A stretch of 64,000 nucleotides of DNA, taken from Lytechinus pictus. Lineage: Eukaryota. The first letter of the stretch is position 1; every line of letters starts with the position of its first letter. Position numbers and translations under genes: made by a program. The notes beneath the pieces were generated by a model. That model ran no database searches. It saw nothing but the letters and a program-made list of their open reading frames with translations, and was not told where the DNA came from. Shown one piece after another: positions 1 to 21,310 of this stretch. The stretch covers positions 2,482,001 to 2,546,000 of the forward strand of contig NC_087252.1 of assembly GCF_037042905.1 (NCBI RefSeq), read 5' to 3'.

Positions 1-315
1 TTCTCTTAATATTACTCCAACACGTGGAATATCTACCGAATATATATATATACATTATATATTCCCGGCAGAGATATTTTTCGGCATCACCAATTTTTCC
101 AAAGGGTAGATAGCTCTGGGGAACCTTGATTTAAGCTACGCCTACCATTGTTCTCTTCATCCATTTCTTTACAATATTTAAATAAAAGAGTTGCCAAAGC
201 TGTTGTACATGTATAACTTCACACACATTGATTTTGTATACTTTCTCCCATACGTGTACTGTATCAAAGGTAGCTCTTTAAAGCTTTCGTATCCCCCAAA
301 ACTTTTACTCTCCAA

Positions 316-530
316 TTTCCATCAGCAAGAAATTTCTCCATGCTGTGTTTCACTGTACCCTGGTGCGGTAAACGGTTACTTGGTCGCAGTAATTCCTTAA
401 ATGCACTGAGTGCCGCTAATGGTATCTCGAGCTATAAAAGCCGGGGCAATAATAGTTGCGCCTTGTATTCTTTGTCAAATACCACTATTTCAATCCAGCA
501 TTTATTATTATTACTATTATTATTATTATT
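316..530 (+). mobile_element. 5'-truncated degenerate SINE (same family)
   Basis: cagcaagaaattt...taattcctt...aaagccgggg matches the core of the other copies and runs into (ATT)n. Confidence 0.65.
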
Positions 531-725
531 ATAATCATTCTTCTTCTTCTTTCTTCTTCTTCCTCTCCTTCTTCTTCTTCTTATTATCATTATTTTATGG
601 TTATTAATATCATTATTATTATCATTATTATTATTATTATTATTATTATCATTATTATTATTATCATTATTGTTATCATCATCATCATTATTGTTATTAT
701 TATTATCATCATCATCATTATTCTT
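501..725. repeat. Compound microsatellite (ATT/TTC/ATC)n
   Basis: Direct reading. Confidence 0.95.
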
Positions 726-819
726 ACTATTTTTAATTTTTGGAAGTTTTTGGAACAATTTCCTTTGTTTTTATGTTATATGTTATATGTATTTTGATGT
801 TTTATGTTTGTTTCATCAG

Positions 820-980
820 GCCATGGTCTGTCTAAGGATAATATGGCAAAAGAGAATTCTCTGCATCCTCGTGAGAAGCGATCTTCATCTTCATCTTCAT
901 CTTCATCTTCTTCTTCTTCATCATCTTCAGAATCTGATTCTGATTCAGCAGAGGTAACGACCGCCGCTCCCGCTCCTTAG
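820..980 (+). CDS. Terminal coding exon of secreted Ser-rich proprotein gene A (first exon probably upstream of the window)
   Basis: Acceptor tttgtttcatcAG|GC, phase 1. Reads (x)HGLSKDNMAKENSLHPREKR-S16-ESDSDSAEVTTAAPAP*; the R-E-K-R furin consensus precedes the poly-Ser. Same design as genes B and C. Confidence 0.7.
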
Positions 981-1987
981 TACTGATGACAGTGCAGACA
1001 GTGATACTAGCGATTAGCCATCATCTTGGTTCAAGGCAACTGCGGTGACTCAATGGATCCTTGAGGAACTCAATCTTAAAAGGCTCTTAACGGCTCATGT
1101 TAACTATATAACATGCCCCTCTCACTTTTAATAGCCCCCCCCCCCTCCCCTCTAAAGTGACACTACTCACGAGACAAAGCTCCTGCATGGATTCACATCC
1201 GGGATAGTTGTTTGATCATGTGGTTCACCCTTTTGACTCTTGGGTCGTATTGACCCGGAACCGGTCCGATGTGACCTCTTCATGGTCAGATCTTACCTTT
1301 TCCATGTCACATAGACAATTTTTCATGTCATTTTCAAGAAAATATTGTTAAAATATCCAAAATAAAAAATTTGTCAACTTCCTAATCCTCTTTTGGAATC
1401 AGACGACTAGTCAGACAATGCTTGCATAAAATTAGCCTTATTCCCCATCATTCATCTTCATAATTATACGCAATGAGTATATTTTTAATTAGTTTCATTT
1501 TGTTAACGAAATATGCCGTATTCATTCTTTTCTTTGGAGGGAGTTAGGGAGGGACTTTCTTTATCTTTCTCTCCCTCTATCTCTCTATTCTCTCTCTCTC
1601 TTTGCTGTTGGTTTTTTTCTTTATCCTGTATTCCAAGACACATATTAAGAACCGTATTAAGATTAAATTGAAGTTCAAACAGTTTGTCGTTTCTGAGAGT
1701 GTTGTTGTTGTGGTTGGATATGTACTTACATTCTTTTATTGTACCATGGATTGATTTATTTTTTCTTTACTGAAAATTTCTCATAGAAAATATCAATAAC
1801 GTATTTGGTATATCTAATACACTGTTTTAAGCACGTTGTTGAAGTCTTTCACTCTAAAAGTTCTTTAAATTTTCAACAAGTTGTTAAACAATGATTTAAA
1901 GTTTTGGCAATTGTTGTCAAAGTGAAGGGATTCATAAGCAACGTGCTTAATATTAAAAGAAAAGCATATAGGTTGTGTTTGCATGAT

Positions 1988-2249
1988 TTAAATGCAAAGT
2001 AGCTAATCTGGTCCCAAATCATACTCTTTTCAGAGTGAGATGAGGGATTAATCCTGATGGAATGAGATTTCAATCTATCAAGAGTGAATTTTTACCTTTT
2101 TTGCAGTGAAAGTGTAAAAAGGCACATTTTCAGTCGAAGAAGGTAAAAATTCACTCTTGAAAGACTGAAATCCCATTCCATAAGGGCTAGTCCATCATCT
2201 CACTCTAAGAGGAAAGTGAGAATGGTCCAGATTAGCTCCTTTGCATTTA
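1988..2249. repeat. Degenerate foldback (MITE-like) inverted repeat
   Basis: caagagtgaatttttacctt / aaggtaaaaattcactcttg, with arms extending about 110 bp. Confidence 0.75.
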
Positions 2250-2611
2250 GAGAGAATAGAATACATAATTTAGGGGCCGTTATAGTCTTACCTATTATTC
2301 ATAGTTTAGGAATATAATCCCTGTGTATACTGATAATATATTTTATCCGACAATTACCATAGTAACATTGCTTCTTAGTCCATCAAAATCACGGAAAGTT
2401 GTCAGATCTGACAACTTGTCGGACAAAATAGTTGATGAAACGCTCAACTGATTATCCATCAAGACACCCAATGCCGAAAGAGTTAAAAACAAACGCAACA
2501 TGAATTTCAACCAATCAAAACGAGCATTTGGGACATGTGATTGATTTCTTGCCTTGCCTTTAACATGTTTAAACGCAACTCTTTCTGTAACGAGCGCAAG
2601 GTGCGGCGTCA

Positions 2612-3062
2612 CACTGCAAATACACAGGTGTTGATTTTACATAAGCCCGGTATATATGTCGGAAAACAACAAGAAAGTGTTTTTAAAAACACCAGTTAAG
2701 AATAAAACCGATGTTGGTTTAACAAGGTTTGGTGTTCTTTAAATACCTATCTGGTGTTAGTATAAAGCTGAAGTTGTGCTGTTTCAACACCTCTTTGGTG
2801 TTTTCCTACACACTTAAAATGTTGGGCAACATACTGTCCACTGTAGTTGGTAATGTATGTTGGTTAAGAAGATATATATTCTGGGCAATTGTTATCTAAT
2901 TGAGCAAATTTATTACCCAATTGGACAGATTTTAACCAATAGTTTTGTGGACAGTATGTTGCCTAGTGATGGTTAGAAATTGGGTCCTTTTTTACCCAGC
3001 CTTTTAAAGAGTGTATATAGTTACCGAGCTGGTGTAAAATAAACACCGGTAATCTTGCAGTG
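2612..3062. mobile_element. CACT-terminus MITE containing a second nested MITE (2809-3013)
   Basis: CA|CACTGCAA...TTGCAGTG|CA. Inner element TA|CACACTTAAAA...TTTAAAGAGTG|TA. Confidence 0.8.
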
Positions 3063-3233
3063 CAGGATTTGAGGGGGGGAATACGATGTAGAGGTGACGT
3101 CATATCCTTTTCTTAATAGGTAAAAGAGTTACACTTCCCAAACCTATCGTCTTTATGTGTCTACTCTTCTTCTTACTTTCCCTTTCTCCTCCAGACCTTT
3201 CTTTTTGTCCCCTACTGTTTTCCCGGATTCCAT

Positions 3234-3390
3234 GACATTTGCTCCGGCGACAATTGCTCCGCTCTAGACCCCACACATTAATCGAATGACCAACTTCCCC
3301 CTACCCTAAACCTAACATAAAACCCTATATTGCAACCCTTACCCTACACCTTAAACAAAGCTGGGGCAATTGTCCGCAGGAGCAAATGTC
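3234..3390. mobile_element. Small MITE with internal CCCTAA-like repeats
   Basis: TIR gacatttgctcc..gacaattgc / gcaattgtc..ggagcaaatgtc. Confidence 0.7.
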
Positions 3391-4034
3391 GTGTCACTTT
3401 GTCGGTATCTATATACAGTGAGTCTCGGGGGGGGGGGGGGGAACAAAAAACAAAACTTAGAAGAAAGTTCAATATCTGCTAATAGAGTACCGAAGTGTGA
3501 CGTCACTGTCATGACAACGAACCGACTGGTTCTAAACAGAGTCGCAGCTGACGATCGTCTATACGCATTTGTATTTGCAAAAAAAATACCATCATTCTGA
3601 TGTTGCAAGCGAGGGAAATTCCGTTAGCAGCCATTTTCTCCTATGAGAAACACGATCCGGATTAATTTGTTTGAAACCAGGCCGCCATGACACCATTGCA
3701 ACTGACGTCATCGCTTCGGAACTCTATAACTAAATGGATAAACATGTTCCCCCTTGAAATGATGCTTGAAATTCCATAACTTATCATACCAAGACGTTTT
3801 ACATGCTGTCTTTCGGACCTACCAATTCTTCCTAATGTTTGTCAATGCATAAACTTTGTTATTGATCATGACCAGGCATGCCTATTTATTGGTAATCGCT
3901 ATTTTGAAGCAATGGTTTCTATGACGCACAAGACTAGGAAGCGAATGAATTATTCTCAGTAAGTTGTGCGCCATTTAGAAGTATCAAGGAGCAAAGAAAT
4001 TTCATCAATTTATCGTACAAAGTGTCAGGCGATA

Positions 4035-4290
4035 CACTCTAAAAAAATCTTTACCCAATATTGGGTAAAATGGGAACGTGCATGTTTGTTGTGTAAAAAG
4101 ATACCAAATATTTTGTAAGTTTTACCAGGGACGTCTCCCTCTCACGTCCCTGGTTTTACGCAATGTTGCGTTGAAATTTATCCTTCAAACATGCATTTTG
4201 CCCAATATTGAGAGAAAAAATAACCGGCAAACATGCATGTTCCCTTTTTACCCAAAATTTGGAAAAATTTTACTTTCTATTTTTAAAGTG
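4035..4290. mobile_element. CACT-terminus palindromic MITE
   Basis: TA|CACTCTAAAA...TTTTAAAGTG|TA with internal inverted arms. Confidence 0.75.
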
Positions 4291-6134
4291 TATTATGGAG
4301 CTCAAAATTGAAGATGATTACAACTATTGGATTCATATTTTTTGTATAATACAAAGACAAAAAAGAAGGCTTCAAAAACGTCAAAAATGTCCTCACACCC
4401 CCCCCCCCCCACTTCTATTCTCGTTCACCCTTGAATATAATTTTGACAGTTTCTTTCTGGTTCCAGTGCTACAAACTAGTTCGACGAAATTTGTTCAACT
4501 TGTTTAACAAAATTTAGAATTTTGGTGTTAATTCATCAGTATTTTAACACTTTAATATCAAACATAAGTAAATGAATCAGCAAATAAATAGATTAATAAG
4601 CAAATAAATGGATAAATAAATACAATTATGATTGAATTAATAAATTAGTAAACAATCAAGGAAAAAGAAATTGTGAGAATTGGGGGCTAAATCGAAGGAA
4701 AACCCTCGACTATAATTGTTTTATTTGAAAAGAAAAACAAAAGTGAACAACAATGAATCAAAGACAGTATAAATGGTAGTGTTCAGTTGGTAAATATTTT
4801 GCTTGATGACGAACAAACATCCAATCGTTTCATCAGCATTGATAAGTGGTAATACAATTAATTAAAAAGTAAACGACATTGGAGAGCATCTTTACGTCAC
4901 AATAATAAGCCTTAAATATTCTCTTTGGATACATTTTCGTAATTTTTTAATATTACATATATTATTTTTCTCATGTTTTGTACAGTTGATGAAAACAAAC
5001 AATAATACCAAGCATAAAGCATTAAAAGCTAATTGCGAATCCAGGGTTTATGGGGGGGGGGAGGGGTATTGCACAGAATGTGGGTCGCCTTATTTTTCGG
5101 TACCCCCCCCCCCCCCCTTCTTACAAAAAATCGAACTAGGGCCTCCCATATACTCTGACATTTTTAAAGATAATATGAAAAAACAGGTACAATTCCGCGA
5201 TATCTGATCCTCCCTTGATGTACATCTGATAGTCATTGTTTAACTACACATTTTCAAAAAGAAAGGAAACATGAAGTATTTTCAGGAGGAAATGATATAA
5301 GTGAACATGATGAATGAGGTGGACTAATTATAAACAGTTCTAATGAAATATCTTTCAATGCGTTTTTTCCTTATTCTTATTTTCATTTCTTCTTTTTTCT
5401 CTTAAACATTCAAGTTCTAATTTTTATCGACATGACAACCATAGGGGGTGGTTGTCTTTCTCCCAGCCCCGCCCGATCCCTCTATAAGTCACAAGCTATG
5501 AAGGTCGGTTCATAATTATGGTCAAGATGACGGTAATCAAAGAATAAAACAAATCATCTATACACATTATTGTGGAATGCGTCAATTTGTAAGAATAGCG
5601 ATAACAAATATAAACAAAAAGAAATGCCTCATCGTGGTTTTGCATGGTATGTTTATTTTTAATTATTTTCTATTTTTAATTAGTATGCATACAGTACCAT
5701 CATCAAAAACGTTTACACTTTCATCTAATTTTGAGATTATTGTTCATGCATGAATCCTGTTTCCGGGAGGTAATTAGCTTCCTGGAGTAGGGTTTTCTTC
5801 CGTGATCTCTTTAATTAGCATGCAAAAACAAATCGGTATTCCATTGCTAACATTCCGCAAAATATTAAAATACATTCTTCTAGAATTAGATTCAGTTCCT
5901 TGAACCCCGTTGATACGTAATCAATATTTTGTTTGCATTATGTGCATTTTCCAATTCTTAATCAAATAGAGGTATCCTACTGAAAGCTAGGCTGTGTTAT
6001 ATATTTAACTAGAAAATGTTACAAGAAATATTTATTGTTGTTGTCTTCCAATTAGTAGAACCTGACCTGCTGAATGTTTATGCGAATCTTTCTGGAGTAT
6101 GGAAGACATTAAAGTTGTTTTGGTAGACCTTTAA

Positions 6135-6867
6135 AGGGGTACTCCGGGTGAAAAATAATTATATTTTAATGAATAGAGTAACATTCACTGAGAAAATGCT
6201 GAAAGTTTCATTCAAATCTGATAACAAATAAAGGAGTTATTGAATTTTAAAAGCTGTTTTATTTTGTGAAAACAGTTGTAGGCAGGCCTCATGAATATTC
6301 ATTAGGCGGGCTGATGATGTCATATCCCCACTTTCCAAGATACCAAGGTTTTTAGGTATTCGAAATAAAAATTTGAATAAGCATAATGTCATGTAAAATA
6401 AAATGCAAAAGAACAAGTCGGGAAATGACTTCATCATTTTGCTCATTGAATATTCATGAAGACATCCATAGAACTGTTACACACTCTAAAAGATATTGGG
6501 TAAAACTGCTCCATGAGGATAATTATGTGTCCAGCCAACATTGGACATTTCTTTTGGGCATTTTTATTTATCCAGTGTGATGAAAAATTTGCCTATTCTA
6601 AAGTACTTGCTGCTTATTTTTTAACCTTACTGGACAATACGCTTCCCGCATTGGGTAAAATACTGCCCAAAATTGGTTGGACACATAATCACCCTCATGC
6701 TGGTATTTTACCCAATATTTTTTTTACAGTGCACTGAAATAAAACAAACCATTAAAATGTCATGACTTTGTTATTCCTTTCCGATTCTTATTAAATTTTC
6801 TGTGTTGCGTTTGTCTGATGTTTATTTATCTGTTCAAATCATATTATTTTCGGCCTGGAGTACCCCT
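6135..6867. mobile_element. Kolobok/T2-type MITE with a nested CACT-type MITE
   Basis: TTAA|AGGGGTACTCC...GGAGTACCCCT|TTAA. Nested element at 6482-6731. Confidence 0.85.
6482..6731. mobile_element. CACT-terminus MITE (CMC/EnSpm-like), 2-bp TSD CA
   Basis: CA|CACTCTAAAAGATATTGGGTAAAA...TTTACCCAATATTTTTTTTACAGTG|CA. Confidence 0.8.
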
Positions 6868-7234
6868 TTAAGTTCTTCTATAAAACTGGAAGAGATACGA
6901 AGTGGTAGAACTTAAAGTATAACACATACAGCCCGTTGCAGAACATGCAGAAAGAGTTGTGATCAAACGCAACTCAAAAATTCTTGAGCAACTTGATTTT
7001 CAGCCAATGAAGCACCCATATTCGTGACTTGCGCTTGGTGTTTTGACTTGCGTTTAAACGCAACTCTTTCTGCAACAGGCCCTGAGTATGATATGGTAGG
7101 CTTTAAAGTTGTAGTAAAACTGGCAGGACCGGATGTGGCAGACCTTAAAAATGCATTACCATTATTACGGTTAGAAGTACGGTTGCAGTCAAAATGCAGT
7201 TACAGGCCAAATGTCGCATGTTGCATGTCCTAAC

Positions 7235-7476
7235 CTAGGCAGGGGAAGGAGGACCGATCATTGTTGTCATGGTTGTGGTAGAGGCAGTTGTAGGTGTTGC
7301 GGTGGTGGTCGTCGTTGTTGTTGTTGTTGTCGGTGCTGGTGGTTGAACTATTTCTTCAGATGAGCTAGATGAGCTAGATGAGCTCGATGAGCTCGATGAA
7401 GAACTAGATGATGAGCTAGATGATGAGCTAGAGTCACTCCTTCTGTCCCTCGCCTGCCAATGCCCCAGACTTCTCG
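7235..7476 (-). CDS. Gene B exon 2: propiece, furin site, 25-Ser run, Thr-rich tail
   Basis: Acceptor ttttttttcattctgatttaaAG|CG, phase 1. Reads (A)RSLGHWQARDRR-SD-S25-EEIVQPPAPTTTTTTTTTTATPTTASTTTMTTMIGPPSPA*. The Ser run mixes TCN and AGY codons. Confidence 0.8.
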
Positions 7477-7897
7477 CTTTAAATCAGAATGAAAAAAAAA
7501 AATCAAACATAAGATCACACAGTGATCGCAGAGGCAGATCAACCAAATTTTAATGTCGGGTATGCTAACCTCACATTCACTTTGTTTTATTTTAGATTAA
7601 AAAGAGAAAATCTACCCCCCCCCCTTTCTACTCCCCCCCCCCCTATTGGCACGAATACATACGGTATACATGGTTACTAATTATCTTTTTCATTTGACTT
7701 GTACTTCCTGAAAATCGATTTTGTTGAAAACACCAAATATTTTAGCAAAATTCTATGCCATATATATTTTTTGTTAATATTCAAGTTTACTTTTTTTATT
7801 TCATTTCTCAACTCGATGATACAGCATATGAAATAATTACACAGATATAAAATGATAACCGTACAAATCAATACAAATGAATACACATTGAATATAC

Positions 7898-8069
7898 TGA
7901 TGACGACCAGAACACGCTGGTTGAAATGTCGGTAACAGTTCTTTTCAGAGCTAACATATATTCAAGAAAGAATAACAAACAGTCCTAAAGTTTCAGGATT
8001 ACATACATGGTGTTTACCGTAAAATCTTTTAATATTCTCTCCACCATGGAAACCTTCAAAGATCATCTA
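7898..8069 (+). mobile_element. Penelope-like pLTR remnant with degenerate hammerhead core
   Basis: CTGATGA-c-gaccag/aacacg/ctggtt-GAAA-tgtc at the 5' edge. Flanked by the 13-bp direct repeat ACATTGAATATAC (7885-7897, 8070-8082). Confidence 0.65.
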
Positions 8070-8085
8070 ACATTGAATATACATA

Positions 8086-8127
<42 letters not shown>

Positions 8128-8128
<1 letters not shown>

Positions 8129-11100
8129 TGCGCCTCCGTAGAGATAGCCTCTTTCATTTAGGGCTCTGTTCATTTTGTTGATTTTTTGCCTTATTTTGAG
8201 GTTACCTTGAATTTAGTTGTTAACACTGCATTCTGTATATGTCAAGGATCTTGCTAGACTTTTTTTATTCAATATTTTGGTGAGTAAGCTTAGTATTGAG
8301 AAGTTGTATTTTATGTACCATATCTGAACTTGCTCAACACTGCCATTTTCAGTGTCCTGTGTTACACTCATGCCTCTATTCACTGTCTATTTTACTTATT
8401 GTTCAGGCAGTTTAGTTTGTACTTCACTTCTGCCTCTTTAATCACAGACAGTAGTGACATTCCATCTACAATGGAGGGGATTAAATTCCTTAGGTTCTTC
8501 TTTGGTGTATCATTGATTGTATTTCTTTTGAATGTTAACCATGTATTCACTCTGCCTTCTGATGCCAGAGATACCTATTCATGTTCTGTTATTCCTGTAT
8601 ACAGGCATCTGAAGTACTGTAGTAGGCCTATTGCTTACTATAGCAATACAAGTGCCTGTTTTCAGTTAGCCATTTTACTATCAGGTGATATTCATATGAA
8701 TCCAGGCCCACGCTATGATGTTGATTCATTTAAATCTACTAATGAATATTGTAACAGTTCACAGTCAGATCGTATTCAATATGATGTTCTCACTCTCCAT
8801 CAGTTAGATAGGAAGCCTTCTCATCATCTTCCTCTGACTGTTTGGAAAAGGATTTGTGACCTTGGTATCCGCCGACATGGTCCTACTCATCGCGGACACA
8901 GGCGTATGGTCTCAAGGCCGCATCCCCTTCCTTCGAGGCCTACTGGTACTCGTTTAGGTTTATGGAATGCACGATCCTTGACAAACAAGATTGATGTAGT
9001 GACTTCTTTGATCATAGATAATGATATTGATGTATTAGTTATCACTGAGTCTTGGTTTTCAGGTGATCACAGAGATGACCCTACTCTTGCGCAGTTGAAA
9101 TTGTCCCTTCCAAATTACAACATTATCAATCGTCCCAGGAAGACTAGGGGAGGAGGTATATGTGTCCTCTACAGGTCCACAGCACGCTGTGTTGTAAATG
9201 AAACCTTTAATTGTTCCTCATTTGAATTTTTGGATCTAACCGTCCATCTTACCCCATCATCTCCTGTTAAATTGTATTGCATTTACCGCCCACCCCAATC
9301 CTCCCGGCACACTTTTTCAAGTGGTGATTTTCTTGAAGAGTTTCTCACTCTTCTGGAAAGTGCTGCTGTGGATGTTCATCCTCCTATTCTTCTTGGTGAC
9401 TTTAATATTCACGTGGATGATTCTTCAGACAATTTTGCTAGATCTTTTCTTAATGGAGTGGAAGCCCTTGGATTCAAACAACACATCAACGGGCCTACAC
9501 ACAAGGCTGGTCATACACTCGACCTTGTCCTTAGTAGAAATTCGGAAGATATTATCTCCCAGCATAGCATTTTACCATCTCTGCCATCTGATCACTCTGC
9601 TATTATATGTACTATTAATCTCAAAGGGCCCCAAAACCCCAAGAAGAAAGTGACTTTCAGGAAACTTTCTAACATTGACCCTAAATCTTTTAGTCTGGAT
9701 GTTAAAGATGTCTTAGATTCCTCTCAATTTCCATCTTGCCCATCTGAGGCTGCTTCTCTGTATAACGACTGTCTTGGTAAACTGATGGACAAGCACGCCC
9801 CTCTGCAGACTGTGACTGTTACAGTTAGACCAAAAGCTCCCTGGTTCTCTGCTGAAATTAGGGAGGCACGGCGACTGAGGCGACGCGCAGAACGTCGAAT
9901 GATGAAGTCTGGCCTGCAGTTTGATAAGACATTATATGCGAAACTTACTACAATCTCCTCACTGATGCCAAATCAAAATACTTTAGATATGAAATCGCTA
10001 ACGCCGACTCCAAACAACTATTCAGTATTGTACAGAAACTCACCACCCCCTCTCAGTCCTCCATTTATCCTGAACACTCATCTGCTTCTGATCTCGCCAA
10101 CAAATTCAGTGAATTCTTTAGCAAGAGGATCAGTGATATTGTGTCCTCTTTTGCACCTGACGTTCCTAGTGATCAACAACATCCTGTGGGCTCTTTGAAT
10201 TGCAAACTGAGTGAGTTTACTCCAGTGACTGAAGTTCAACTTCGCCATCTCATCAAGTCATTACCACCGAAGTTCTGCAGTCTTGATCCTTTTCCAACTT
10301 GGTTGCTCAAAGACTGTATTGATGAACTTCTACCGCTTCTCATAAACATTATCAATTCATCACTCACAACAGGTGTTGTCCCTGAATCATTCAAATCATC
10401 ACTAGTTCTTCCTCTGTTGAAAAAGCCCAATCTTGATCCGAATGACTTTGGCAATTATCGCCCTATCGCCAACCTGCCATTTGTTAGCAAGGTTTTGGAG
10501 AGAATCGTCGCATCCCAGCTCATGTGCTATGTGGACAGTCATCATTTGCTTCCTGAGAAGCAGTCAGCATATCGCAACTTTCATTCAACAGAAACGGCTC
10601 TCTTGAAAGTACTCAACGATCTACTGCTTACCGTCGACAAGGGTAACGAAGCTGCACTCCTTCTACTGGACTATTCTGCGGCGTTTGACACTTTAGACCA
10701 CTCAGTGTTGCTCCAGCGTCTTGCACATGACTACTCCATTACCGGAACGGCTCTAAATTGGATTGAGTCATACCTGCAAGATCGTACTCAGCGGGTGATT
10801 ATCAATGGAACTTTCTCAGCACCTTTCGCTTTGAGCTGCGGAGTCCCCCAAGGTTCTGTTGTGGGCCCTCTCCTATTTCTTCTGTACACTGGTCCTCTCG
10901 CAAAAATTATCACTAGCCATCGGGGTGTGAGTTATGCCATGTATGCAGATGACACGCAAATCTACGTATCCATGGCATCCGACCAGAAGACATATGCTGT
11001 TAATCTACTGAGTGACTGCCTCAAGGACATCAAGGTCTGGTCAGCGAAGAACAGACTCCGTCTCAACGAAGCCAAATCAGAACTGGTACATCTTTCTTCG

Positions 11101-11776
11101 CAATTTAGAGCTACGGAGCCTCTGCCAGACTTCAATATGGGAGAGGGCATACTTAAGATGTCTGACTCTGTCAAAGACCTTGGTGTCACTTTAGACAAGC
11201 ACCTTACCCTCCAGCCACATATCAGGAACATCTGCAAATCAGCATCATGGGGTTTATTTAGGATTGGTAAGGTCAGGCGACTACTCGACCAAGCCTCTAC
11301 TGAAAAACTCATTCATGCCTTCGTCTCATCCCATCTAGACTATTGCAACTCCCTCTTTGCCGGCCTCCCAATTTCTTCCATCTCTCCCCTCCAGCGAATC
11401 CTCAACACTGCAGCGAGAATGGTAACCTTGAGCAAGAAACACGAACACATCACCCCTATTCTCCGATCACTTCATTGGCTTCCGGTTCACTCTCGCATAA
11501 CGTTCAAAATTCTACTCATTGCATACAAAATTACCCATAATATGTCACCCAAATATCTCCAAGACCTTATTTCCCTTCGTTCTTCCTCTTCTGTCAGATC
11601 CTTACGTTCATCATATTCCAATAATTTAATTCATGGCCCTCGCACTAAGACCCGATATGGTGATCGTGCATTTTCTGTAATTGCTCCCACCCTCTGGAAT
11701 AAACTCCCAATTCATATCCAAAATGCTCCCTCCGTAGAAATTTTCAAATCGTCACTTAAAGCTCACCTTTTCTCAT

Positions 11777-11808
<32 letters not shown>

Positions 11809-11925
11809 CTCCCCCTTTTTTTCCGACCGATTGACTGTATATTATTATAATCTGCCAACCTGTGCGCTTTGAAACACCAGTATAAAGCGCCCTACAAATG
11901 TTATTATTATTATTATTATTATTAT
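8128..11925 (+). mobile_element. L2/CR1-group non-LTR retrotransposon, near full length, single ORF, in the intron of gene B (antisense to it)
   Basis: APE endonuclease motifs (WNARSL, ITESW, GDFNIH, GHTLDL, SDH), RT motifs (YRPIANL, AFDT, GVPQGSVVGP, YADDTQ), HITPILRSLHWLPV C-terminus, 3' stem-loop GCGCTTT..AAAGCGC (11864-11890) and (TTA)n tail. Confidence 0.95.
8471..11778 (+). pseudogene. LINE endonuclease-reverse transcriptase ORF with a single frameshift at about 9937
   Basis: The first frame reads ...LQFDKTLY. The second continues CETYYNLLTDAKSKYF... into ORF 10141-11778. No other disruption seen. Confidence 0.9.
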
Positions 11926-12099
11926 ACTTGAACCAATATATTTTATGCATTTACACACACTTTTCTTACTTAGCTGAACCTTAAAAATGATGATCCACCA
12001 AACATAATCAGAGTATACCACCTTGCCCCTAACATAGCAACATTAAAATAATATGGAATAACAGTTTGTTGGGTTAAAAGCTTTTTTGGAAATAACACG

Positions 12100-12900
12100 G
12101 AGTCATAAAGTGTATTCACAATGTGCTCACGTCTGCACAATCATAACATAGTGAACTGAAGGTGTGATACACCGCTGGAATTGTGGAGATGTTAAGCAGA
12201 GCGTTTCCATTGTTACAATGCTCAAATTTAAAAGGTTGAAGATAATTTCACAGTGGACACTTCTATAGCCATGACAGCAAGAATATTCACAGCGCGTTTA
12301 CATATGATAGTGGAATTTGTGAAGATAATGCTCAAATTTTACCTCCGCTGTGTGAGTTTTCAAGGTCTTTGGTTTTCACAGTGTCTCTCATAATGAACGA
12401 TGTGATTCACACTATCAAAATACTAAAGATTAACAAAGGGAAACTTCTGTAGTGTGGATTTACAGGGGTTTTGCCCTATTATAATTGATTGTCTAAAGAT
12501 GCGATTCACACCACAGTTAAACAGCTCAAATTAAACACTGTGAAGATAATTTCACACTATCTGTGTACACTTCAACAGCGGGGATATATTCAACATTGCG
12601 TTCACATATAGTAGAATTTGCAAAGATGGAGTGTCAAAGCTAACAGTGTGGTGATGATTTCACACTGTGGATACTACTGTAGTGCGCATTTACAAAGTGT
12701 GTCCATATAATGGACCGTGTGTGGAGCCTGGATTTAGTTTCACACTATGGAGACCTCAACACTGAGGGTGAAGTGTGTTCAAACAGTGACCTATGAGAAG
12801 ATGTATTTCACACTGTTAAAATACTCAAATTTGAACAGTGTGAAGGAGAATCTCACACTATGTTCCACTTCGTGAACACACCGTGCGACACTGTATTATT
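12100..12900. repeat. Degenerate tandem repeat region
   Basis: Recurring ctcaaattt...gtgaagataatttcacact motifs. Confidence 0.6.
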
Positions 12901-12957
12901 TCCCACATGGAAAAGATCGGGTTTCAATATTGGATGAGTGATTTTATCTTAACTTAC

Positions 12958-13015
12958 CACAAGCTGATGAAACCAGTAGCGAAAATAGGAAAAAAAATTT
13001 AACAATATTCGTCAT
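12958..13015 (-). CDS. Gene B exon 1: signal peptide of a 99-aa secreted poly-Ser/Thr proprotein
   Basis: ATG at 13015 encodes MTNIVKFFFLFSLLVSSAC plus G|GTAAGT, a perfect phase-1 donor. TATATAAA lies about 145 nt upstream. Confidence 0.8.
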
Positions 13016-13157
13016 TTTTTTATCGCTGAGTTCTTTGGATATGTACTCAATTATCAGAAACAATCGGCCCCAGTTGTAGTCTTCTTGGAAAACTTTTAAT
13101 CATGAAATTCAGCTTGCAAATAACATAATAGTGTTTACTCCAATGATGTGTGCTTCC

Positions 13158-13165
13158 TTTATATA
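13158..13165 (-). promoter_or_regulatory. Candidate TATA box of gene B
   Basis: TATATAAAGG on the minus strand, about 145 nt upstream of the gene B ATG. Confidence 0.5.
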
Positions 13166-14246
13166 TGAAATAAGGGGGAAATGTTTGAGAAGTAAAATTG
13201 GATTGAAATTTTCAGATAGGGTAATATACGACTTCAGAGGTTGAATAAACAAACTATTGCTCATTAACCTCAAAACAGGACATGTTCATGTGTTTCCTGA
13301 TCTGATTTGCAGTATGTATACTTTCCTTCCGGGGGGGGGCAAAACGCATAGAAATTTTTTGAAGAAACGTGATAAGAGAGAGCGAAGAGAGAAAGCGAAG
13401 CGACATAGATGGTTATTTGGGGCGCCATTGCATTTTCCACTGTACAATTAAATTTAAGATAATCGTGCACACTTTTTGTCAATTTTGTGAAAACTTTAGT
13501 AAAAATTTACATTTTGGGGAGGGGCAAATGCCCCCCCCCCCCCGCATCGCCCCCGATATCTAAGGCCATGTTACTCAATTTTAGATCGAGGGGCTAATTT
13601 CGAATAAATAACAATTTCCGGGCACTTTATTCTGAATTTTATTTCATCTGAGTATAAATATTTATTTCCAAATCGTTATAGAATTAATTTTAATTGCAAC
13701 TCGTTTCATCGATGTATTGCACTGTATCTTTCTTTCTTTTATTTTGTTATTGAATATTCAATCGGTTCATATATCGCATTACCCGCCCCTTCCCCCATAA
13801 AAGGAAAGAACATTACGAAAAAGTTAGAAAGACTTTCTCGTTTTAATCCCTTGAAAGATAATCGCTTAAAAACACTAACGTGTCTGTATACTGACACATA
13901 TCTGGCCTCATTTAACCAAGAGTTGAAACCTCAAACACGATCGACATATTTCTTCTTTATCCTTGCTTATTTGTACAATTAACCATAGATATTTTGCTTA
14001 ATCATTTGTCTGTTTGTTTATTCCTTCCGCCATGACAATCGGTCAGCCAATGATGATCAGGAAAATCTGGAGAACGGTTGATTGGCGCGTATAATGATAT
14101 CACCTTATTTGTTTGGGATAATTACGATCGTAAACAAACCTTCGTATTACGAATTTTCTTTGGAAGGGATCACTTTGTAAAAAAAAAGAGTTCGTAATGA
14201 AAATGCTCGACCATGGAGGTAGAACGGGACGGCATCGACTTCTTAA

Positions 14247-14848
14247 ATGTCAAGTCCTTCCCAGAAAAAAGTTGATATCAATAAATAGAGAAAAATCAAA
14301 CAAGAATAATGCTGAAAACTTCTTCAAAATCGGATGGAAAATAAGAAAGTTATGACATTAAATTTTGTCGCTTATTTTTCACAAAACAGGTTTTTCCTGA
14401 ACTCAGTGACATGCAAATGAGAGAGACGATGATGTCACTCACTCACTATTTATTTTGTTTTTTATTGTTTGAATTATACAATATTTCATTTTTTACAGAT
14501 TTGAAAATTATGACAATCTTTTTTGAACCACAAAATGTTAAAACAATAGAATTCCACATGTTCAGGGAGCAATGAAAAATTTTCCGCATGACAATGAGGA
14601 GAAAATTTAAATATATCATATTTCATATAATAAAATACAAAAAAAATAGTGAGTGGGTGATGTCATCGGTTCCCTCATTTGCATACTGTCCAGGATGTGC
14701 ATATAACTGTTTTATGAAATTTAGCAAAACTTTAAAATGTCATAACTTTCTTATTTCAGATCCAATTTTGATGAAATTTTCAGTGTTATCCTTGTTTGAT
14801 TTTTCTTCGTCTGTTCAAATCATCTTTTTGTTGGGGTGGACTTGTCCT
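14247..14848. mobile_element. Kolobok/T2-type MITE
   Basis: TTAA flanks and long imperfect TIRs. Homologous to 29013-29594. Confidence 0.85.
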
Positions 14849-15396
14849 TTAAAGAATAAGAAAATGTATTTCAAAATTACTTCGGCCTCCTAAAAAATGT
14901 TGACAGGGCTAAGTAATTTTAAAACACATTTTTTTAGTTTGGGGATACTAATATTACTTTCCCAAGAGGAATTAGAGCGCATCCCGCAAACTCCTATAGT
15001 TGACGAGGGGCCATTGATCAGAACAACCCAACCGTACTATTACTGAACGGCCTATGTTCGATGTCAAAAACTCAAAAGGAGAGGGCGCCATACTTTACCA
15101 GAATATGTGAAACATCAATCGGACTTATAACCGGTAACTAATCCTCAGCTATATGCAGTTTCTCCCAAAATATCAGCATTTTGATTGGAATACGGATAGT
15201 AAAAATTAACGGAAGAACATCATGATAATGTTTAAAACAACAAGATACTAATAATGGTAATTGTCACACTATTCATTCATTCATTCAAATATATTTCAAT
15301 TAATAGGTTAAAAATACATTTACAAACACCGTGATATACATGTATAAAGACACAAAAACAGAATTAATTCATAATTATCTGTTAATTCATAACAGA

Positions 15397-15626
15397 TAAT
15401 AATAATATAGGTATATTATTACCCCGGCTTTAGCTGGGCTGCCTAGGCGCTCAAATCATTCAAGGAATTTCTTCCTACCGGGTACCCATTCACCCCACCT
15501 GGGTTGAGTGCAGCACAGTGTGGATGAATTTCTTGCTGAAGGAAATTACGCCATGGCTGGGATTTGAACCCACGGCCCTCTGTTTCAAAGTCAGAAGACT
15601 AATCCACTGGGCCACAACACTCCACA
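15397..15626 (-). mobile_element. tRNA-derived SINE (same family)
   Basis: Reverse-complement match to 43606-43882 including A/B boxes and core. Confidence 0.88.
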
Positions 15627-16199
15627 ATGTGAAAATACATTTTAATACAGATGAATTATGATATGCCATCATGAATAGAATTTTTCAAAAAATCCGATCT
15701 ATATTAATTTTCGTTCGGTAAGTGCTTTCGTGAAACCGGGCCCCGGCAACATAAATCTGAATCAGAAGCCGCAAATCTGTCAGATCGATTTCCAGTCGTG
15801 GATCGGTCAATAAGCGCAAACTCGTGATCGGCATATCGAACTGAAATAAACTTTTCACAACAAATCTCTACAGCATCCGTTTCTCGCTTATCGGTTTATC
15901 ATCATAAAATGGTTTTTGCCTTGAAAATTCAACAGATGCTGTATATTTTAAGAAAATAACATGGGTTACTGAGTGTTTTGAGATGTCATTTTCATTACAT
16001 TAATGAAATAAAACATATTCATCCCGCAGTTGTTCGAGTAAAACCAGAAAGAAAATGTATTGATTACGGGCGTTTCTTCAAGCATTGCAAGATGTAGGCA
16101 GTATTACCTTATTTCGCAAAAGTTTTGACAAGGTTGAGAAAGTTTCTCAAAATGTTCTTTTGAGTACTTGCTGACTTCATCGGAGATTGCCATTTCATC

Positions 16200-16258
16200 A
16201 TAATCCACGAGCAAAATAATCAAGGATGTGTAAATAGGACTAGACTAACTATCAAAAG
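16200..16258 (+). other. Possible non-coding 5' exon of gene C (5' boundary unknown)
   Basis: Strong donor AAG|GTAAGA at 16258/16259. The gene C ATG is directly preceded by an acceptor, which implies an upstream UTR exon. Confidence 0.35.
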
Positions 16259-17707
16259 GTAAGAAATTACAAAATGTGTTTGATCTCATTATTCAATATT
16301 TGTATGGTGGTTAGCTGTTTAGTCTCAGTATTTTTTAAATATTTACTTTATGTAGGTTTATGCATTGTAAAGCATTGAACATGCATGTTAAATCGGAGAA
16401 TAAAGGCCTATATATATATACATGCTTATAACATTGGGGAAAATATTGCAGTTAATTATTTCATTTGGCTATAGGCAAGGGTTTTAATAATTTTCCATTT
16501 CTAATCATCTGTCTGTTGTTATGTTGTGTTTCACTTGTTAATTCGACAGATTTAATTTCTGATGTAAAGTGATGACAAAGCTTGAATTAGCTTCTCAAAT
16601 ATCACTACGATTTTTGTGCACGTAATCATATGATGACAGTGGTTACTTCATAATTCATAAATATACCACAAATCTCGCAAATCATTTTGATTACTGGTTC
16701 TAGCTAAACCTAACCAAAAGTAGGCCCGCAAATAACCGAAATGAATTAATAAAATTTATGGAATGCAATGCAGTAAAGGTTCGATTCTATTGTTGAAAGA
16801 TATATATATATATTTCTGGTTCACTCTGTTCCACTCTCATTTCTAATTTCCCTCACACCCCCCCCCCCCCCCCCTTTTCTCTCTCCAACAATCCCGCCAT
16901 CCATCTACCTGTTTTATCAGTTTATGTCCAAAGAGCTCTTTAATTTATTTGCTGTCTTCTGTCATTTTCTCGAACTGGTTATCTTTTATTTACTTTTTAA
17001 AAAGCGAATTCAGTAGCTGTTTTAATTGTTATTCTCTCCATTTTCTCTCTGATTTGATTTGATTTCATTCTTTTCATTATTTTGTTCCTTTATCCTATAG
17101 CTCTTCTTTTCCTTCTACTCCCCTCCTCGCATTTCATTTGAAAACTTTTTAACCGTATTATAATTTCCCCATGTGTTGTTATGATTATTCAAATGTCAAA
17201 GTTTGGTTCTATTCAATTCATTTATTTATTCAACCATCAAAAGGATAAAAACAGTACAATATACCTTATTAACAAAGTATCATAAAAACAACAACAACAA
17301 CAAATAAATGGTTCGGAGACCCCGGAGAAGCGATGGTTATAAAAGGGGTCACCACAATACATTAATGCATTACAAATAACAAGTGTGAAGAAAAGTACAA
17401 TTCAGATTATTGAAAACAATTTGGTCGTGACTTTATGCAAATAAGTGAAATAATAAATAAAGGAAACATTATTTCATAGTGATCTATTTCCAGATAACCT
17501 ACTTGCATTTTTGTACCCTAGTCCTTTTTTGGAAAAGCTTCTTTAGAAAGCGATATTTAGATGTAAAGATAATTTAATATTAAGAAGGAGATACTGATAT
17601 AGAACATTTAATTTTTTTGAAAAGTAAATGTTATGCCTTTGAAAAAAATTCCCCCATGACTTATTGATTATGATCTCTATTTTGTCAGAGTTTCCTATTT
17701 TCCATAG

Positions 17708-17777
17708 ATGAACCTTGGATATATGATCTTCATCTTACTGCATTTATCATCTCTGTTACATAATGAATCAGCAGATG
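17708..17777 (+). CDS. Gene C first coding exon: signal peptide of a 359-aa mucin-like proprotein
   Basis: ttttccatAG|ATG encodes MNLGYMIFILLHLSSLLHNESAD plus G|GTAAGT, a phase-1 donor. Joined to 20301 it gives ...SADA-HPAKRR, an A-x-A type cleavage site. Confidence 0.75.
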
Positions 17778-17879
17778 GTAAGTTTCCTCTTCCCATTTTT
17801 TTTTTCATTTCCCTTTTCCTCCGTTTCCTATTCACTTTATTTTCCTTTATTCCTCCCTCCTCTTAGTCATCATTCTTTT

Positions 17880-18064
17880 CTTCTTCTTCTTCTTCTCCTT
17901 CTTCTTCTTCTTCTTCTTCTCCTCCTCCTTCTTCTTCTTCTTTTTCTTCTCCTCCTTCTTCTTCTTCTTCTTCTCCTTCTTCTTCTTCTTCTCCTCCTTC
18001 TTCTTCTTCTTCTTCTTTTTCTTCTTTTTCTTCATCTCCTTCTTCTTCTTCTTCTTCTCCTTCT
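17880..18064. repeat. (TTC/CTC)n microsatellite
   Basis: Direct reading; lies in the gene C intron. Confidence 0.95.
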
Positions 18065-19227
18065 TTTTCGACCTCTTTCCTTTAATTCGAAAACTATTTT
18101 TTCATTTTCATTTTATAGTTATTTAATTGTTTAACGTTTTTGCCATTGTGCAATTTCACTCATATATGACAGTTATTAGTTTGTTTGTTTTTTCTTCAGT
18201 TTAAACATAAAGATAAGTAATAAAGGCAGGAAAATTTTTACCAAAGTTCTTTACGAAACATGTGTTTCACTGAAAACTAATGGTATATTCTTAAATTGGG
18301 GATTTCTTACTCTTACTTTTTTGTTATAAAATATTTTAGATATATAAACCTCTCATCAATATTACTAATTAATCTTTGATTAATTGCGAAATCATTGTGA
18401 AACGTGTCAAGTATATACAGTACAAATTTGCATCGTTATAGCCTTGACCATGTTTACACTCAAACTAACAAATATCGGCTCTAATGAATTTATTCAATTT
18501 GGCCAACATTGAATGCAATCTAAAAAAATCCAGAAAAAAAAACAAGATCAGTGCCTCACGATGTGACCTTCGCGAATGAGGAGTCAATGTTCATCTCCAT
18601 GAGCCTCCCCATAATCCTATGCTAATTAGCTTCCGTTTAGCCGCTCTTACTTTAGTCTAAATCCTAGAATTTTTTTTAAAGTTCTCGAATGTTTTAGTTG
18701 CCATAAAATTTGCTTGACTTTAAATAATGGAAAATAAAACTGGCACAATGGTGTAAATTACATCGAAATCGGATATAAACAAGACGAACGTTCTTTTTTT
18801 TTCTTATATTCCCACATTTTGTGATTCTTTTAATTATACAATTTTGTATAAGTTATGCAAATGCTGAACTTGTGATTAAACTATATTGACTTTAATTTAT
18901 TTTGCGAAATAAGATCATACAGAGTATTATGAAATACCTGGTCATAATGAAAATTAAAGGAAAAAAAAAAACAGACTGACGACTTTTCTTTAAAAAACAA
19001 AGCTTTTACGCTGAAGTAAATTTTGTTTTCTCATTCACTATAGAGAGCTTGATGTTAGATAAAGTTATTTTTGCTATCAGACTTAAAACTGATCTTTATT
19101 AATTTTTTTCATCTTATATGTAATGGTTTGCAATAATGAACTAAAAAAACAAAGCAAAACTGTTAATGGTTTTATAATTTCTCGTCCCACAATCGTTCAA
19201 AAGATAAAATCGTTGGGCTGTGGACAC

Positions 19228-19248
19228 TAGCGTACCTACGGTTGAAGA

Positions 19249-19299
<51 letters not shown>

Positions 19300-19329
19300 T
19301 GACGAAAATCTTTATTTTGTATTGATGAC

Positions 19330-19375
<46 letters not shown>

Positions 19376-19421
19376 TGTCAAATTTTTTCTGGTACGAAAA
19401 TCTTTATTTTGTATTGATGAC

Positions 19422-19461
<40 letters not shown>

Positions 19462-19521
19462 TGTCAAATTTTTGGGCGGCCAATTTTGCCCCCCCTGTGA
19501 AAAATCCTAGGTACGCCACTG
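19228..19521 (-). repeat. MITE-like element with poly-T minisatellite units
   Basis: Three (T)n-gcttg units, terminus cctaggtacgccactg. Related to 30477-30725 and 45927-46042. Confidence 0.65.
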
Positions 19522-20300
19522 GCTGTGGAGTGTTTCATGCAGCATATTCAAAAGTGATTTTCACTGATATTTTTACCCTAAACCAATCAGATGCCAGGAT
19601 TTCAGAAGCTTATAAAAAAAGAGTAAATTAAAGTCACCAACTATATGTTTCATGAAAAGTCTCCTCGCCTGAGTATTTGTTTGTAAGCCAAAACCACAAA
19701 ATTAGATTTGGGGAAGCTGATCTGAGGGGCGAAACGGTACGGGGCCGCTAGAACTAAAAATAAACGTTGGCCAAAATCTTGAACATTTTCTAACGTGCTG
19801 GCTCACGCGGGCAAAATTGATTAACATCCCTTGCAAATGAAATTATTGTCTATTCATCAATCATCTTGAGCCATGCTTTAAAACAATTATTCCGAGCCGT
19901 ATGTTATCATGTGTGTTAAAGGAATTCATGAATGCTAATAAGTACCTAGAATAATATAAGCTTTTAAGCTTATTTCTTCCAATTAATTTTATTTTCTTCA
20001 GTTCTTGCCTTGCCTTGTCTTTTTGTTGTTGACTAATCATAATTTCCATTTTGAGCAGACTTTAACAATGATGAAATCGGGAGAGGAAGTATAACAAGAC
20101 AGAAATAGACAAAAAACATATCTTGATAAGTATACAGTACTAATAACCTTTGTTGAATTTCTTATTTGTAAGGGATGTTTGCGTTGCATGTGTTTTGTTT
20201 TGTTTTGTTTTGCTTTGCTTTGCTTTATCGGAATCAACTCAACATCAGGGTGGGACTTTTCTTTTTTAATTTCTGTATTTCATTTGTTTATTTTTCATAG

Positions 20301-21310
20301 CTCATCCAGCTAAACGCAGGATCGGACCTCTCTTCTCTGACTTGGGCCTCATCGGTGGAAGGAGATATCAGAAAAGATCAGGAAGCAAGAGTGGAAGCAG
20401 CAGCGGTGGAAGCAACAGTGGTAGCAGAAGTGGTAGCAACAGTCGTATCAGGAGTGGTAGCAGAAGTGAGAGCAATGATTCATCCGACGAGCGTTTCAGA
20501 AAGAAGTATCCCTCAGCAACCCTTCCTACCATAACAGTGACAACACTTCCCAGAACCATGCCACCAAGATTCACAACAGCTCGCACGGCAGCTACAACGA
20601 CTACACCGCCACCACCAACGACACCACCAGGAACGACTGTGACAACCTCTATGACGCCTACAGTTCGAGTAGAAACTACGGAGCTTACCACTTCAAACAA
20701 TCCAATCACGCCAGCCACTCCTACGACGCCGACAGCAACTACAACTCCTATCACATCCAGATCTCCAACCACACCTACCACTTCCACTACAACCAACACC
20801 CCAACGATAATTACAACACCTACAAAGCCTACAATCCCCACCACTCCTACAACTCCTACCATCCAAACGACTCCCAGGACACCCACGACACCAATCACTC
20901 CTACAACGCCTTCGACACCAACAACACTAACTACCCCCACGACTCCTACAACAACAATAACAACGACGCCAACTACTCCTACAAAACCTACTACTACGAC
21001 GACACCTACCACTCCTACGACACCAACTACCCCTACGACACCTACGACTCCTACGACATCAACTACCCCTACAACAACCACAACATCGACGACACCTACG
21101 ACTCCTACGACACCAACTAACCCTACGACTCCTACAACAACAACGACGCCAACTACTACTACATCACCTACTACTACGACGACACCTACGACTCCTACGA
21201 CACAAACAACCCCAACCACCCCTACAACACCTACGACTCCTACCACACCTACCACTCCACCAAGTACTACCAGGTGTATACGTCGAGGAGATATTTGCCC
21301 AGGAGAGTGA
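20301..21310 (+). CDS. Gene C terminal exon: Ser/Gly-rich block plus mucin-like (PTT)n Thr/Pro domain
   Basis: Acceptor ttatttttcatAG|CT, phase 1. Reads HPAKRRIGPLFSDLGLIGGRRYQKR-SGSKSGSSSGG...SESNDSSDE-RFRKK...(PTT)n...RCIRRGDICPGE*. The frame is open for 1 kb and synonymous codons vary within the repeats. Confidence 0.85.

Follow-up and report, generated by a model that had tools for sequence, protein, structure and literature searches.

Candidate genes for two short phosphoserine peptides and a mucin-like precursor at a locus of the sea urchin Lytechinus pictus

A guiding role in mineral formation and in adhesion under water is attributed to highly phosphorylated acidic proteins, few of which are described from sea urchins in the papers examined (P16, P19, and phosphodontin). 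The sea urchin tooth matrix contains acidic phosphoproteins (PMC2830187, PMC2758014). Phosvitin, which is cut from vitellogenin, carries polyserine that is a substrate of Fam20C, a kinase with a preference for SxE/pS (PMC7948968). The tubeworm cement proteins Pc-3A/B and Sa-3 are secreted, cation-bridging, heavily phosphorylated polyserine proteins (~73% Ser in Pc-3) and have been proposed as Fam20C substrates (PMC12621633, PMC4275877).

We analyzed a 64,000-nucleotide stretch of the L. pictus genome (the window, to which coordinates refer unless indicated otherwise), in which an earlier note had described three neighboring genes, A, B, and C, for secreted, Ser-rich proproteins. At the sequence level, the three gene models hold up, and we consider it very probable that the genes are real. 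All exon coordinates proposed for A, B, and C could be reproduced, as could the phase 1 entry into each terminal exon, the G|GTAAGT end of the B and C signal exons, and the Ser blocks of A (16 Ser followed by ESDSDSAE) and B (S-D, 25 Ser, EE). The 8 predicted splice sites rank between the 93.7th and 100th percentiles of all GT/AG sites in 364 kb when scored with a matrix trained on the 14 introns of SIDT, a neighboring gene whose own sites reach percentiles of 67 to 99.9 in leave-one-out scoring. By themselves, signal-like phase 1 exons occur often, at 13 loci in the 364 kb, and a phase 1 intron close to the signal-peptide cleavage site is frequent among secreted proteins (PMC1626468). Only 2 exons in the 364 kb, those of A and B, combine a strong acceptor with R-x-K/R-R and ≥8 Ser among the next 20 residues. 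A furin site followed by 7 TCN codons matched 3 times in 812 Mb (reversed control, 2); the other 2 of these 3 places are not secreted-type exons. A simple hydropathy scan found signal peptides and no transmembrane stretch after residue 30 (highest 15-residue hydropathy of −0.53, 0.26, and 0.54 for A, B, and C, respectively). Spliced reads, which the earlier note had suggested as a check, were not seen at the predicted junctions among the 15 of 110 junctions listed, all of them repeat-derived, and the depth over the C exon was ≤0.15 in 2 raw-read runs (~6% of reads sampled). Short zero-mismatch contig pieces on the C exon (X1 and X3; depth 2.4 to 2.7), with empty adjoining unique-intron bins, were rejected as evidence of expression because X1 covers an intronic LINE at similar depth.

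Gene A (+ strand) begins outside the window, where a likely 5′UTR exon ending at L002:5748 (donor, 92.3rd percentile) lies just downstream of a TATA-like box. The signal-peptide exon (26 codons plus 1 nt; L002:6897-6975, equivalent to contig C8 2478897-2478975), 3.1 kb left of the window, is entered at AG|ATG and ends in phase 1 (acceptor and donor at the 99.1st and 93.7th percentiles; h-region hydropathy 3.36). The 3.8-kb intron ends in the window (1..819) and is followed by the terminal coding exon (820..980; acceptor, 100th percentile), which completes a 79-residue precursor: a propiece, REKR (870-881), 16 Ser (882-929) encoded by alternating TCT and TCA only, the acidic cap ESDSDSAE (930-953), 8 further residues, and a stop. 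The Thr/Pro tail ascribed to A amounts to just these 8 residues, possibly truncated through a one-base slip. A frame-shifted acidic stretch starts at the stop codon (979..1017; 12 residues comprising 5 Asp, 4 Ser, 2 Thr, and 1 Ala, then a stop); among 727,924 windows of a six-frame translation of the 364 kb, 5 have such a composition, at 2 loci including A itself. Its displacement probably reflects a one-base indel, either an assembly error or an allele, and the stop of A may hide an acidic tail behind such a slip. Splicing was rejected as the source of the shifted frame because phase 2 would be needed, whereas the signal-exon donor is in phase 1 and the donor-like site at 953 (92.8th percentile) in phase 0; the latter could provide an alternative C-terminus.

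Gene B lies on the − strand, with a signal-peptide exon at 12958..13015 (19 codons plus 1 nt; donor, 99.9th percentile; h-region 2.52) and a terminal exon at 7235..7476 (acceptor, 98.2nd percentile) completing a 99-residue precursor, in which a propiece and RDRR (7450-7439) precede S-D-25 Ser, EE, and a Pro/Thr tail. A TATA-like box is located ~150 nt upstream of the signal exon. The B Ser run draws on 5 codons and mixes the TCN and AGY families, a usage unique among 11 poly-Ser runs examined, 9 of the other 10 having a single dominant codon or AGT/AGC only; the mixture shows selection on the reading frame. The B intron contains a LINE retrotransposon on the opposite strand (8300..11775, +), with endonuclease and reverse transcriptase in 2 overlapping frames (PF03372, E 4e-17; PF00078, E 1e-32), which was excluded as part of the B product.

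The acidic caps would prime both interleaved S-x-pS registers in A and B, so that all 19 Ser of A and all 26 Ser of B satisfy the S-x-E/pS rule. Shuffled sequences matched this reach in 0 (A) and 1 (B) of 20,000 cases, although these values are less independent than they look because they mostly reflect the placement of acidic residues after the run. The phasing by which an acidic cap would render every Ser of A and B accessible to Fam20C is a new observation. The genome harbors 3 Fam20-domain loci (on C10, C12, and C15), the number expected from the one Fam20B and two Fam20C of sea urchins (PMC7948968). Secretion and cleavage of A and B are thus far predictions, which we judge probable, and a similarly good chance attaches to their hyperphosphorylation. 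The earlier proposal that all 3 products are secreted, convertase-cut phosphoserine polyanions is therefore retained for A and B, based on sequence and cap phasing, and dropped for C, which resembles a mucin-type polyprotein. The furin consensus R-x-K/R-R directly before the Ser block is similarly restricted to A and B, C having Tyr at P4 and Arg at P5/P6.

Gene C (+ strand) is arranged head-to-head with B. Its signal-peptide exon (17708..17777; 23 codons plus 1 nt; acceptor and donor at the 96.9th and 99.8th percentiles; h-region 2.22) is entered at AG|ATG, implying an upstream 5′UTR exon; candidate donors for such an exon are found at 15717 and 16258. In the 359-residue precursor completed by the terminal exon (20301..21310), KRR (20312) is followed by a 12-residue peptide and G-RR with possible amidation (20321-20365), KR (20372), a (Ser-x)n block (20378-20491), RKK (20498), a 267-residue Thr/Pro tail, and a terminal Cys-x6-Cys with an enclosed RGD (21275-21298), the RGD lying 6 residues from the C-terminus. 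A donor-like site is present at 21273. The block is not the polyanion formerly supposed: its net charge is +1, and the Fam20C rule reaches 1 of 18 Ser, or 6 of 18 if Asp also primes. It displays S-x-S alternation 11 times (17 of 20,000 shuffles). Changes in the tail are 87 synonymous versus 16 nonsynonymous (87/103 at third positions), whereas 5 control windows of noncoding Thr microsatellite consist of essentially one codon and lack this bias; the C pattern shows selection on the protein. C is likely mucin-like rather than polyphosphoserine. Gel-forming mucins carry vWD or cystine-knot domains; the C exon has 2 Cys and no Pfam family. The possibility that C is the 5′ part of SIDT was rejected because SIDT possesses a signal exon and a RefSeq N-terminus of its own.

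No homology is detectable among A, B, and C, leaving the single family envisaged in the earlier note unproven. In uncorrected pairwise comparisons of signal and propiece regions, 2 of 9 gave nominal p values of 0.02 to 0.04 (best 0.024) and the rest p > 0.2, and blastn returned short low-complexity matches without an informative DNA match. Homologues, orthologues included, were not seen in protein, structure, Pfam, or metagenome searches. C residues 1–75 had no homologue among 2,653 candidates (lengths 184 to 587) at E ≤ 10, and the A exon none among proteins of 28 to 91 residues or in 1.84 billion representatives, these searches having been run with queries from C and A. An Atlas search with C and B gave no usable match, the N-terminal part of C no PDB match, Pfam only compositional matches below the cut-off, and the A query 615 metagenomic pattern matches, none confirmed. 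A and B would be missed by homology search because low complexity conceals them. Paralogue searches of the L. pictus genome returned self matches only; some of the patterns were built from A or B and hence show single copy only. Six other matches from a further genome search are not secreted-type exons, and a looser pattern was discarded after ~38,000 microsatellite matches. A fourth member is absent within 200 kb upstream and 100 kb downstream. Motif strings had no match in the literature text searched, and a description of the genes was not found in that literature (main texts, with few subscription papers). Red-coral scleritin, a basic protein, was rejected as an analogue (PMC3365975).

In the explanation that we favor, at about an even chance, all three are single-copy urchin genes, A and B encoding cleaved phosphoserine polyanions that bind calcium, and C a co-located mucin-like precursor. 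Each gene would pair a signal-peptide exon with a single large terminal exon. The signal peptide would direct A and B into the secretory pathway, where Golgi Fam20C would start at the cap and relay N-terminally, bringing the net charge to about −42 for A and −55 for B, and a furin-type convertase would clip off the propiece, a short basic segment that may mask charge until release. The phosphoserine block could then bind Ca/Mg or amorphous calcium carbonate, kept soluble by the O-glycosylated Thr/Pro tail. In C, cleavage at both ends of the neutral Ser/Gly/Arg block would set free a short peptide, which may be amidated, along with a glycosylated stalk whose end is an RGD looped by a disulfide. 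The best reading of A and B is as predicted convertase-released, phosvitin-like calcium-binding peptides of mineral or extracellular matrix, such a calcium role being about evenly balanced; the products could be components of skeleton or glue. Counting against this explanation, a skeletogenic hint was not found: the Alx1-type palindrome is absent from the A 5′ region and the B–C interval, and 2 copies lie in the A intron against a background of 0.08/kb. Likewise, A, B, and C have no counterpart among the 21 test-matrix phosphoproteins listed in Table 1 of PMC2830187, though mature A and B lack Lys and Arg and would consequently escape trypsin-based searches.

With genes and processing unchanged, the products might instead belong to a secretion that is adhesive, mucous, or cuticular (from tube foot, epidermis, gut, or egg coat), working like the polyphosphoserine cement of tubeworm Pc-3 with C as mucin partner, an option we regard only tentatively. 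It accords with the properties of Pc-3/Sa-3 outlined above, with the mucin-like character of C, urchin adhesive cells holding mucin-like transcripts (PMC7037938), and with the head-to-head arrangement of B and C, which permits co-expression; yet mature A and B are devoid of Tyr for cross-linking, and the main text of the tube-foot paper mentions neither serine nor threonine (PMC7037938). Alternatively, C and possibly A and B could be precursors of a signaling or defense peptide, the amidated 12-mer between KRR and G-RR being the key product and the Ser and Thr/Pro parts acting as spacers or as a proteoglycan-type core (6 Ser-Gly dipeptides). The 12-mer is hydrophobic and flanked by dibasic sites, a neuropeptide-precursor motif in sequence terms, and its Gly-Arg-Arg end follows the amidation rule; C also has 5 basic clusters and a Ser block with regular S-x-S alternation and no Fam20C relay. 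We regard this reading as unlikely, given that the peptide of C is single copy and without motif match in the literature text, that the long Thr/Pro tail is under strong selection, and that A and B have no 12-mer-like cassette.

Finally, at least one model may correspond to no working gene, being either a microsatellite-derived frame that happens to be flanked by splice-like sites or a gene in decay, for which A, with its shifted frame at the stop, is the most plausible case. The lack of a homologue in any search and of junction reads, the restriction of the A Ser run to TCT/TCA, and the frame slip at 978 are compatible with this. The splice scores, the third-position bias in C, the mixed Ser codons in B, the phasing of the A and B primers, and the fact that A has a complete anatomy (TATA, UTR exon, and AG|ATG) argue against it and render it improbable.

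As candidates, A and B are concrete, very short, and liable to be overlooked by standard methods, yet small enough for synthesis or expression and direct testing with calcium carbonate. The two-register primer cap offers a simple, testable rule by which Fam20C hyper-substrates could be located in further genomes.

Like P16/UTMP16 and phosphodontin, the products would be urchin-specific, with signal peptides, and acidic and rich in Ser/Asp/Glu, as are these biomineral phosphoproteins; however, P16 has transmembrane and cytosolic domains, for which A, B, and C lack the hydropathy, phosphodontin has 35 repeats of 11 to 12 residues not found in their translations, and neither protein shows an uninterrupted run of Ser following a dibasic site (PMC2758014, PMC2830187). 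The SIBLING/SCPP proteins (DSPP, DMP1, osteopontin, and caseins) are likewise secreted calcium-binding Fam20C substrates encoded by clustered genes (PMC7948968). Here, RGD is found only in C and the phospho-block on A and B, that is, on different genes. Vertebrate SCPP introns are of phase 0, whereas all three introns here are of phase 1, and homology searches gave no matches. That the locus is an independent echinoderm counterpart of the SIBLING/casein cluster is rather doubtful; A and B would then be minimal, two-register phosphoserine "sponges", unmasked by a convertase and stabilizing amorphous calcium carbonate in skeleton or tooth, C would be co-expressed with B from a shared promoter and contribute both an amidated signal peptide and a mucin tether tipped with RGD, and all three genes would have escaped annotation and trypsin proteomics. 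Secreted mucin-like proteins with Thr/Pro repeats include integumentary mucins and the Drosophila glue protein Sgs3. With these, C shares a signal exon, a long Pro-Thr-Thr repeat, and a short Cys-containing C-terminus, but is set apart by its N-terminal multi-site propiece, its Ser/Gly/Arg block, the presence of only 2 Cys, and the lack of a Pfam match over the cut-off. Compared with Sa-3 (216 to 405 residues, with Tyr-containing regions in Sa-3C) and Pc-3 (PMC12621633, PMC4275877), A and B stand out as short proteins that have no Tyr beyond the cut site and that carry a propiece and Thr/Pro tail. As in phosvitin, long Ser runs would be released by proteolysis and phosphorylated by Fam20C (PMC7948968), whereas A and B are stand-alone precursors of 79 and 99 residues, with no vitellogenin domain or Pfam match over the cut-off, in which the acidic cap would supply canonical primers.

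Three neighboring predicted genes, A, B, and C, each pairing a signal-peptide exon with a terminal exon that carries a basic site and a Ser block, occupy part of C8:2482001-2546000 in the 811.7-Mb genome of Lytechinus pictus, flanked by a rhodopsin-family GPCR gene ending ~11 kb left of the window and, downstream, by the SID-1-family gene SIDT, one exon of which matches an L. pictus RefSeq protein at 100% identity. The models of B (13015-12958 and 7476-7235, -) and C (17708-17777 and 20301-21310, +) translate cleanly as the earlier note proposed, into 99 aa and 359 aa, respectively; the 2 genes are oriented head-to-head and are perhaps co-regulated. Gene A joins its terminal exon (820-980, +) to a signal exon outside the window (L002:6897-6975; entry AG|ATG, exit phase 1), yielding a 79-aa precursor; farther upstream lie a likely 5'UTR exon and a TATA-like box. 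The B intron hosts a LINE on the opposite strand (8300-11775, +), encoding an endonuclease and a reverse transcriptase in 2 overlapping frames with 1 frame break.

Several lines of evidence bear on whether these low-complexity exons are coding. When codons 3 apart in the C tail are compared, position 1 carries 6 of the single-base differences, position 2 carries 10, and position 3 carries 87 (87 synonymous, 16 non-synonymous), whereas 5 control windows of non-coding Thr microsatellite consist almost only of ACT and lack third-position bias. The B Ser run uses 5 codons from both Ser families, the sole such case among 11 poly-Ser runs of at least 12 in 364 kb; the TCT/TCA alternation of the A run is weaker coding evidence. 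Using a splice matrix trained on 14 SIDT introns and all GT/AG in the 364 kb as background, the 8 predicted sites of A, B, and C rank at the 93.7-100th percentile, compared with 81-99.9 for donors and 67-99.7 for acceptors of SIDT itself (leave-one-out). Signal-like phase-1 exons alone are common (13 loci in 364 kb), but within this stretch a strong acceptor combined with R-x-K/R-R and a Ser block is found only in A and B. Genome-wide, a furin site plus 7 Ser matched 3 times (control, 2); one of the other 2 matches is a microsatellite, and one is an internal exon from a gene for an unrelated protein. Repeats dominated the 4 runs over 6900-21600, and the predicted junctions were absent among the 15 of 110 joints listed; raw-read depth on the C exon is at most 0.15, and short exact contig pieces there are indistinguishable from DNA carry-over. 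No homologues were found for A and C in protein collections or for B and C in Atlas; the search did not retrieve even A itself, which therefore appears to be missing from public protein collections. Overall, A, B, and C are very likely real orphan genes.

The 3 genes had been regarded as one family with a shared design, a view that requires revision. Convincing mutual homology is absent, and phase-1 introns are generally enriched near signal cleavage sites (PMC1626468); shared descent of A and B is plausible. The Thr/Pro tail ascribed to A is 8 residues long, and a 12-residue Asp/Ser stretch in a different frame starts exactly at the stop. Because only 2 loci among 727,924 windows, this one included, show such a composition, a one-base assembly error or allele at the stop is likely. 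In C, the site before the Ser block has Tyr at P4 and lies outside the R-x-K/R-R consensus, and the supposedly polyanionic block has a net charge of +1. This block instead places Ser at alternating positions (11 S-x-S; 17/20,000 shuffles) and contains 6 Ser-Gly pairs. Five basic clusters include RKK after the block and KRR and G-RR bracketing a hydrophobic 12-mer, a possible amidation pattern. The predicted C-terminus, Cys-x6-Cys enclosing RGD, is only a candidate, because a weak donor-like site (84.7th percentile) directly precedes it. We infer that C is a mucin-like precursor with several cut sites, distinct from A and B.

Other features were observed in the surrounding sequence. The GPCR, neuropeptide-receptor-like by eye, lies just upstream of A (L004:7521-7940 and L003:8395-8844, +). 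SIDT spans 23779-61119 (+); the RefSeq models listed for L. pictus and L. variegatus reach only 328-678 aa, against 792 aa for the Diadema protein, and the 3 L. pictus models read end at the 61119 exon. The membrane part at the C-terminus may therefore lack annotation or be absent. A short four-Cys frame downstream of C (21572-21640, +), with neither acceptor nor start, is probably a chance occurrence. Elsewhere on C8, a ~12.7-kb segment with sulfotransferase-like exons and a leucine-rich-repeat gene is present twice with identical open frames (about 2,330,000-2,360,000), representing a recent tandem duplication or an assembly artefact; a 1,531-codon frame (about 2,291,800-2,296,400, +) resembles a retroelement polyprotein by eye; and a 395-codon frame (about 2,572,300-2,573,500, -), which opens with a signal-like sequence and contains repeats rich in Pro and Gly, is possibly another orphan secreted protein.

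The Ser blocks of A and B end in acidic caps (ESDSDSAE and EE, respectively). Fam20C prefers S-x-E/pS, with phosvitin Ser runs among its substrates, and urchins possess 2 Fam20C and 1 Fam20B (PMC7948968); this genome contains 3 Fam20-domain loci. Applied iteratively, the rule reaches 19/19 serines in A, 26/26 in B, and 1/18 in C. In A, the first Glu primes one register and the alternating Ser ending S-A-E the other; in B, each of the 2 Glu primes one. Full reach was matched by 0/20,000 shuffles for A and 1/20,000 for B; since this null mainly rewards acidic residues after the run, the cap phasing is no more than suggestive of a Fam20C relay. The net charge is predicted to be about -42 for A and -55 for B, and no membrane anchor was found in A, B, or C. 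A and B would be secreted, lose a short basic propiece, and emerge as calcium-binding polyanions bearing an O-glycosylated tail. The most likely destination, at about even probability, is a mineralizing matrix, although nothing in the promoters pointed to skeletogenic control; an adhesive or mucus is the less probable alternative. Mature A and B offer trypsin no Lys or Arg to cut, so their absence from trypsin-based skeleton proteomes is hardly informative.

We found no description of these genes in searches of open-access main texts. In their predicted mode of action, A and B resemble phosvitin and tubeworm Pc-3/Sa-3 (PMC12621633, PMC4275877), and the cluster is reminiscent of SIBLINGs, but they belong to none of these groups. 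Urchin P16 is membrane-anchored and phosphodontin has 35 repeats (PMC2758014, PMC2830187), unlike A and B, which we infer to be a novel variant among secreted polyphosphoserine proteins, with putative roles as set out above.
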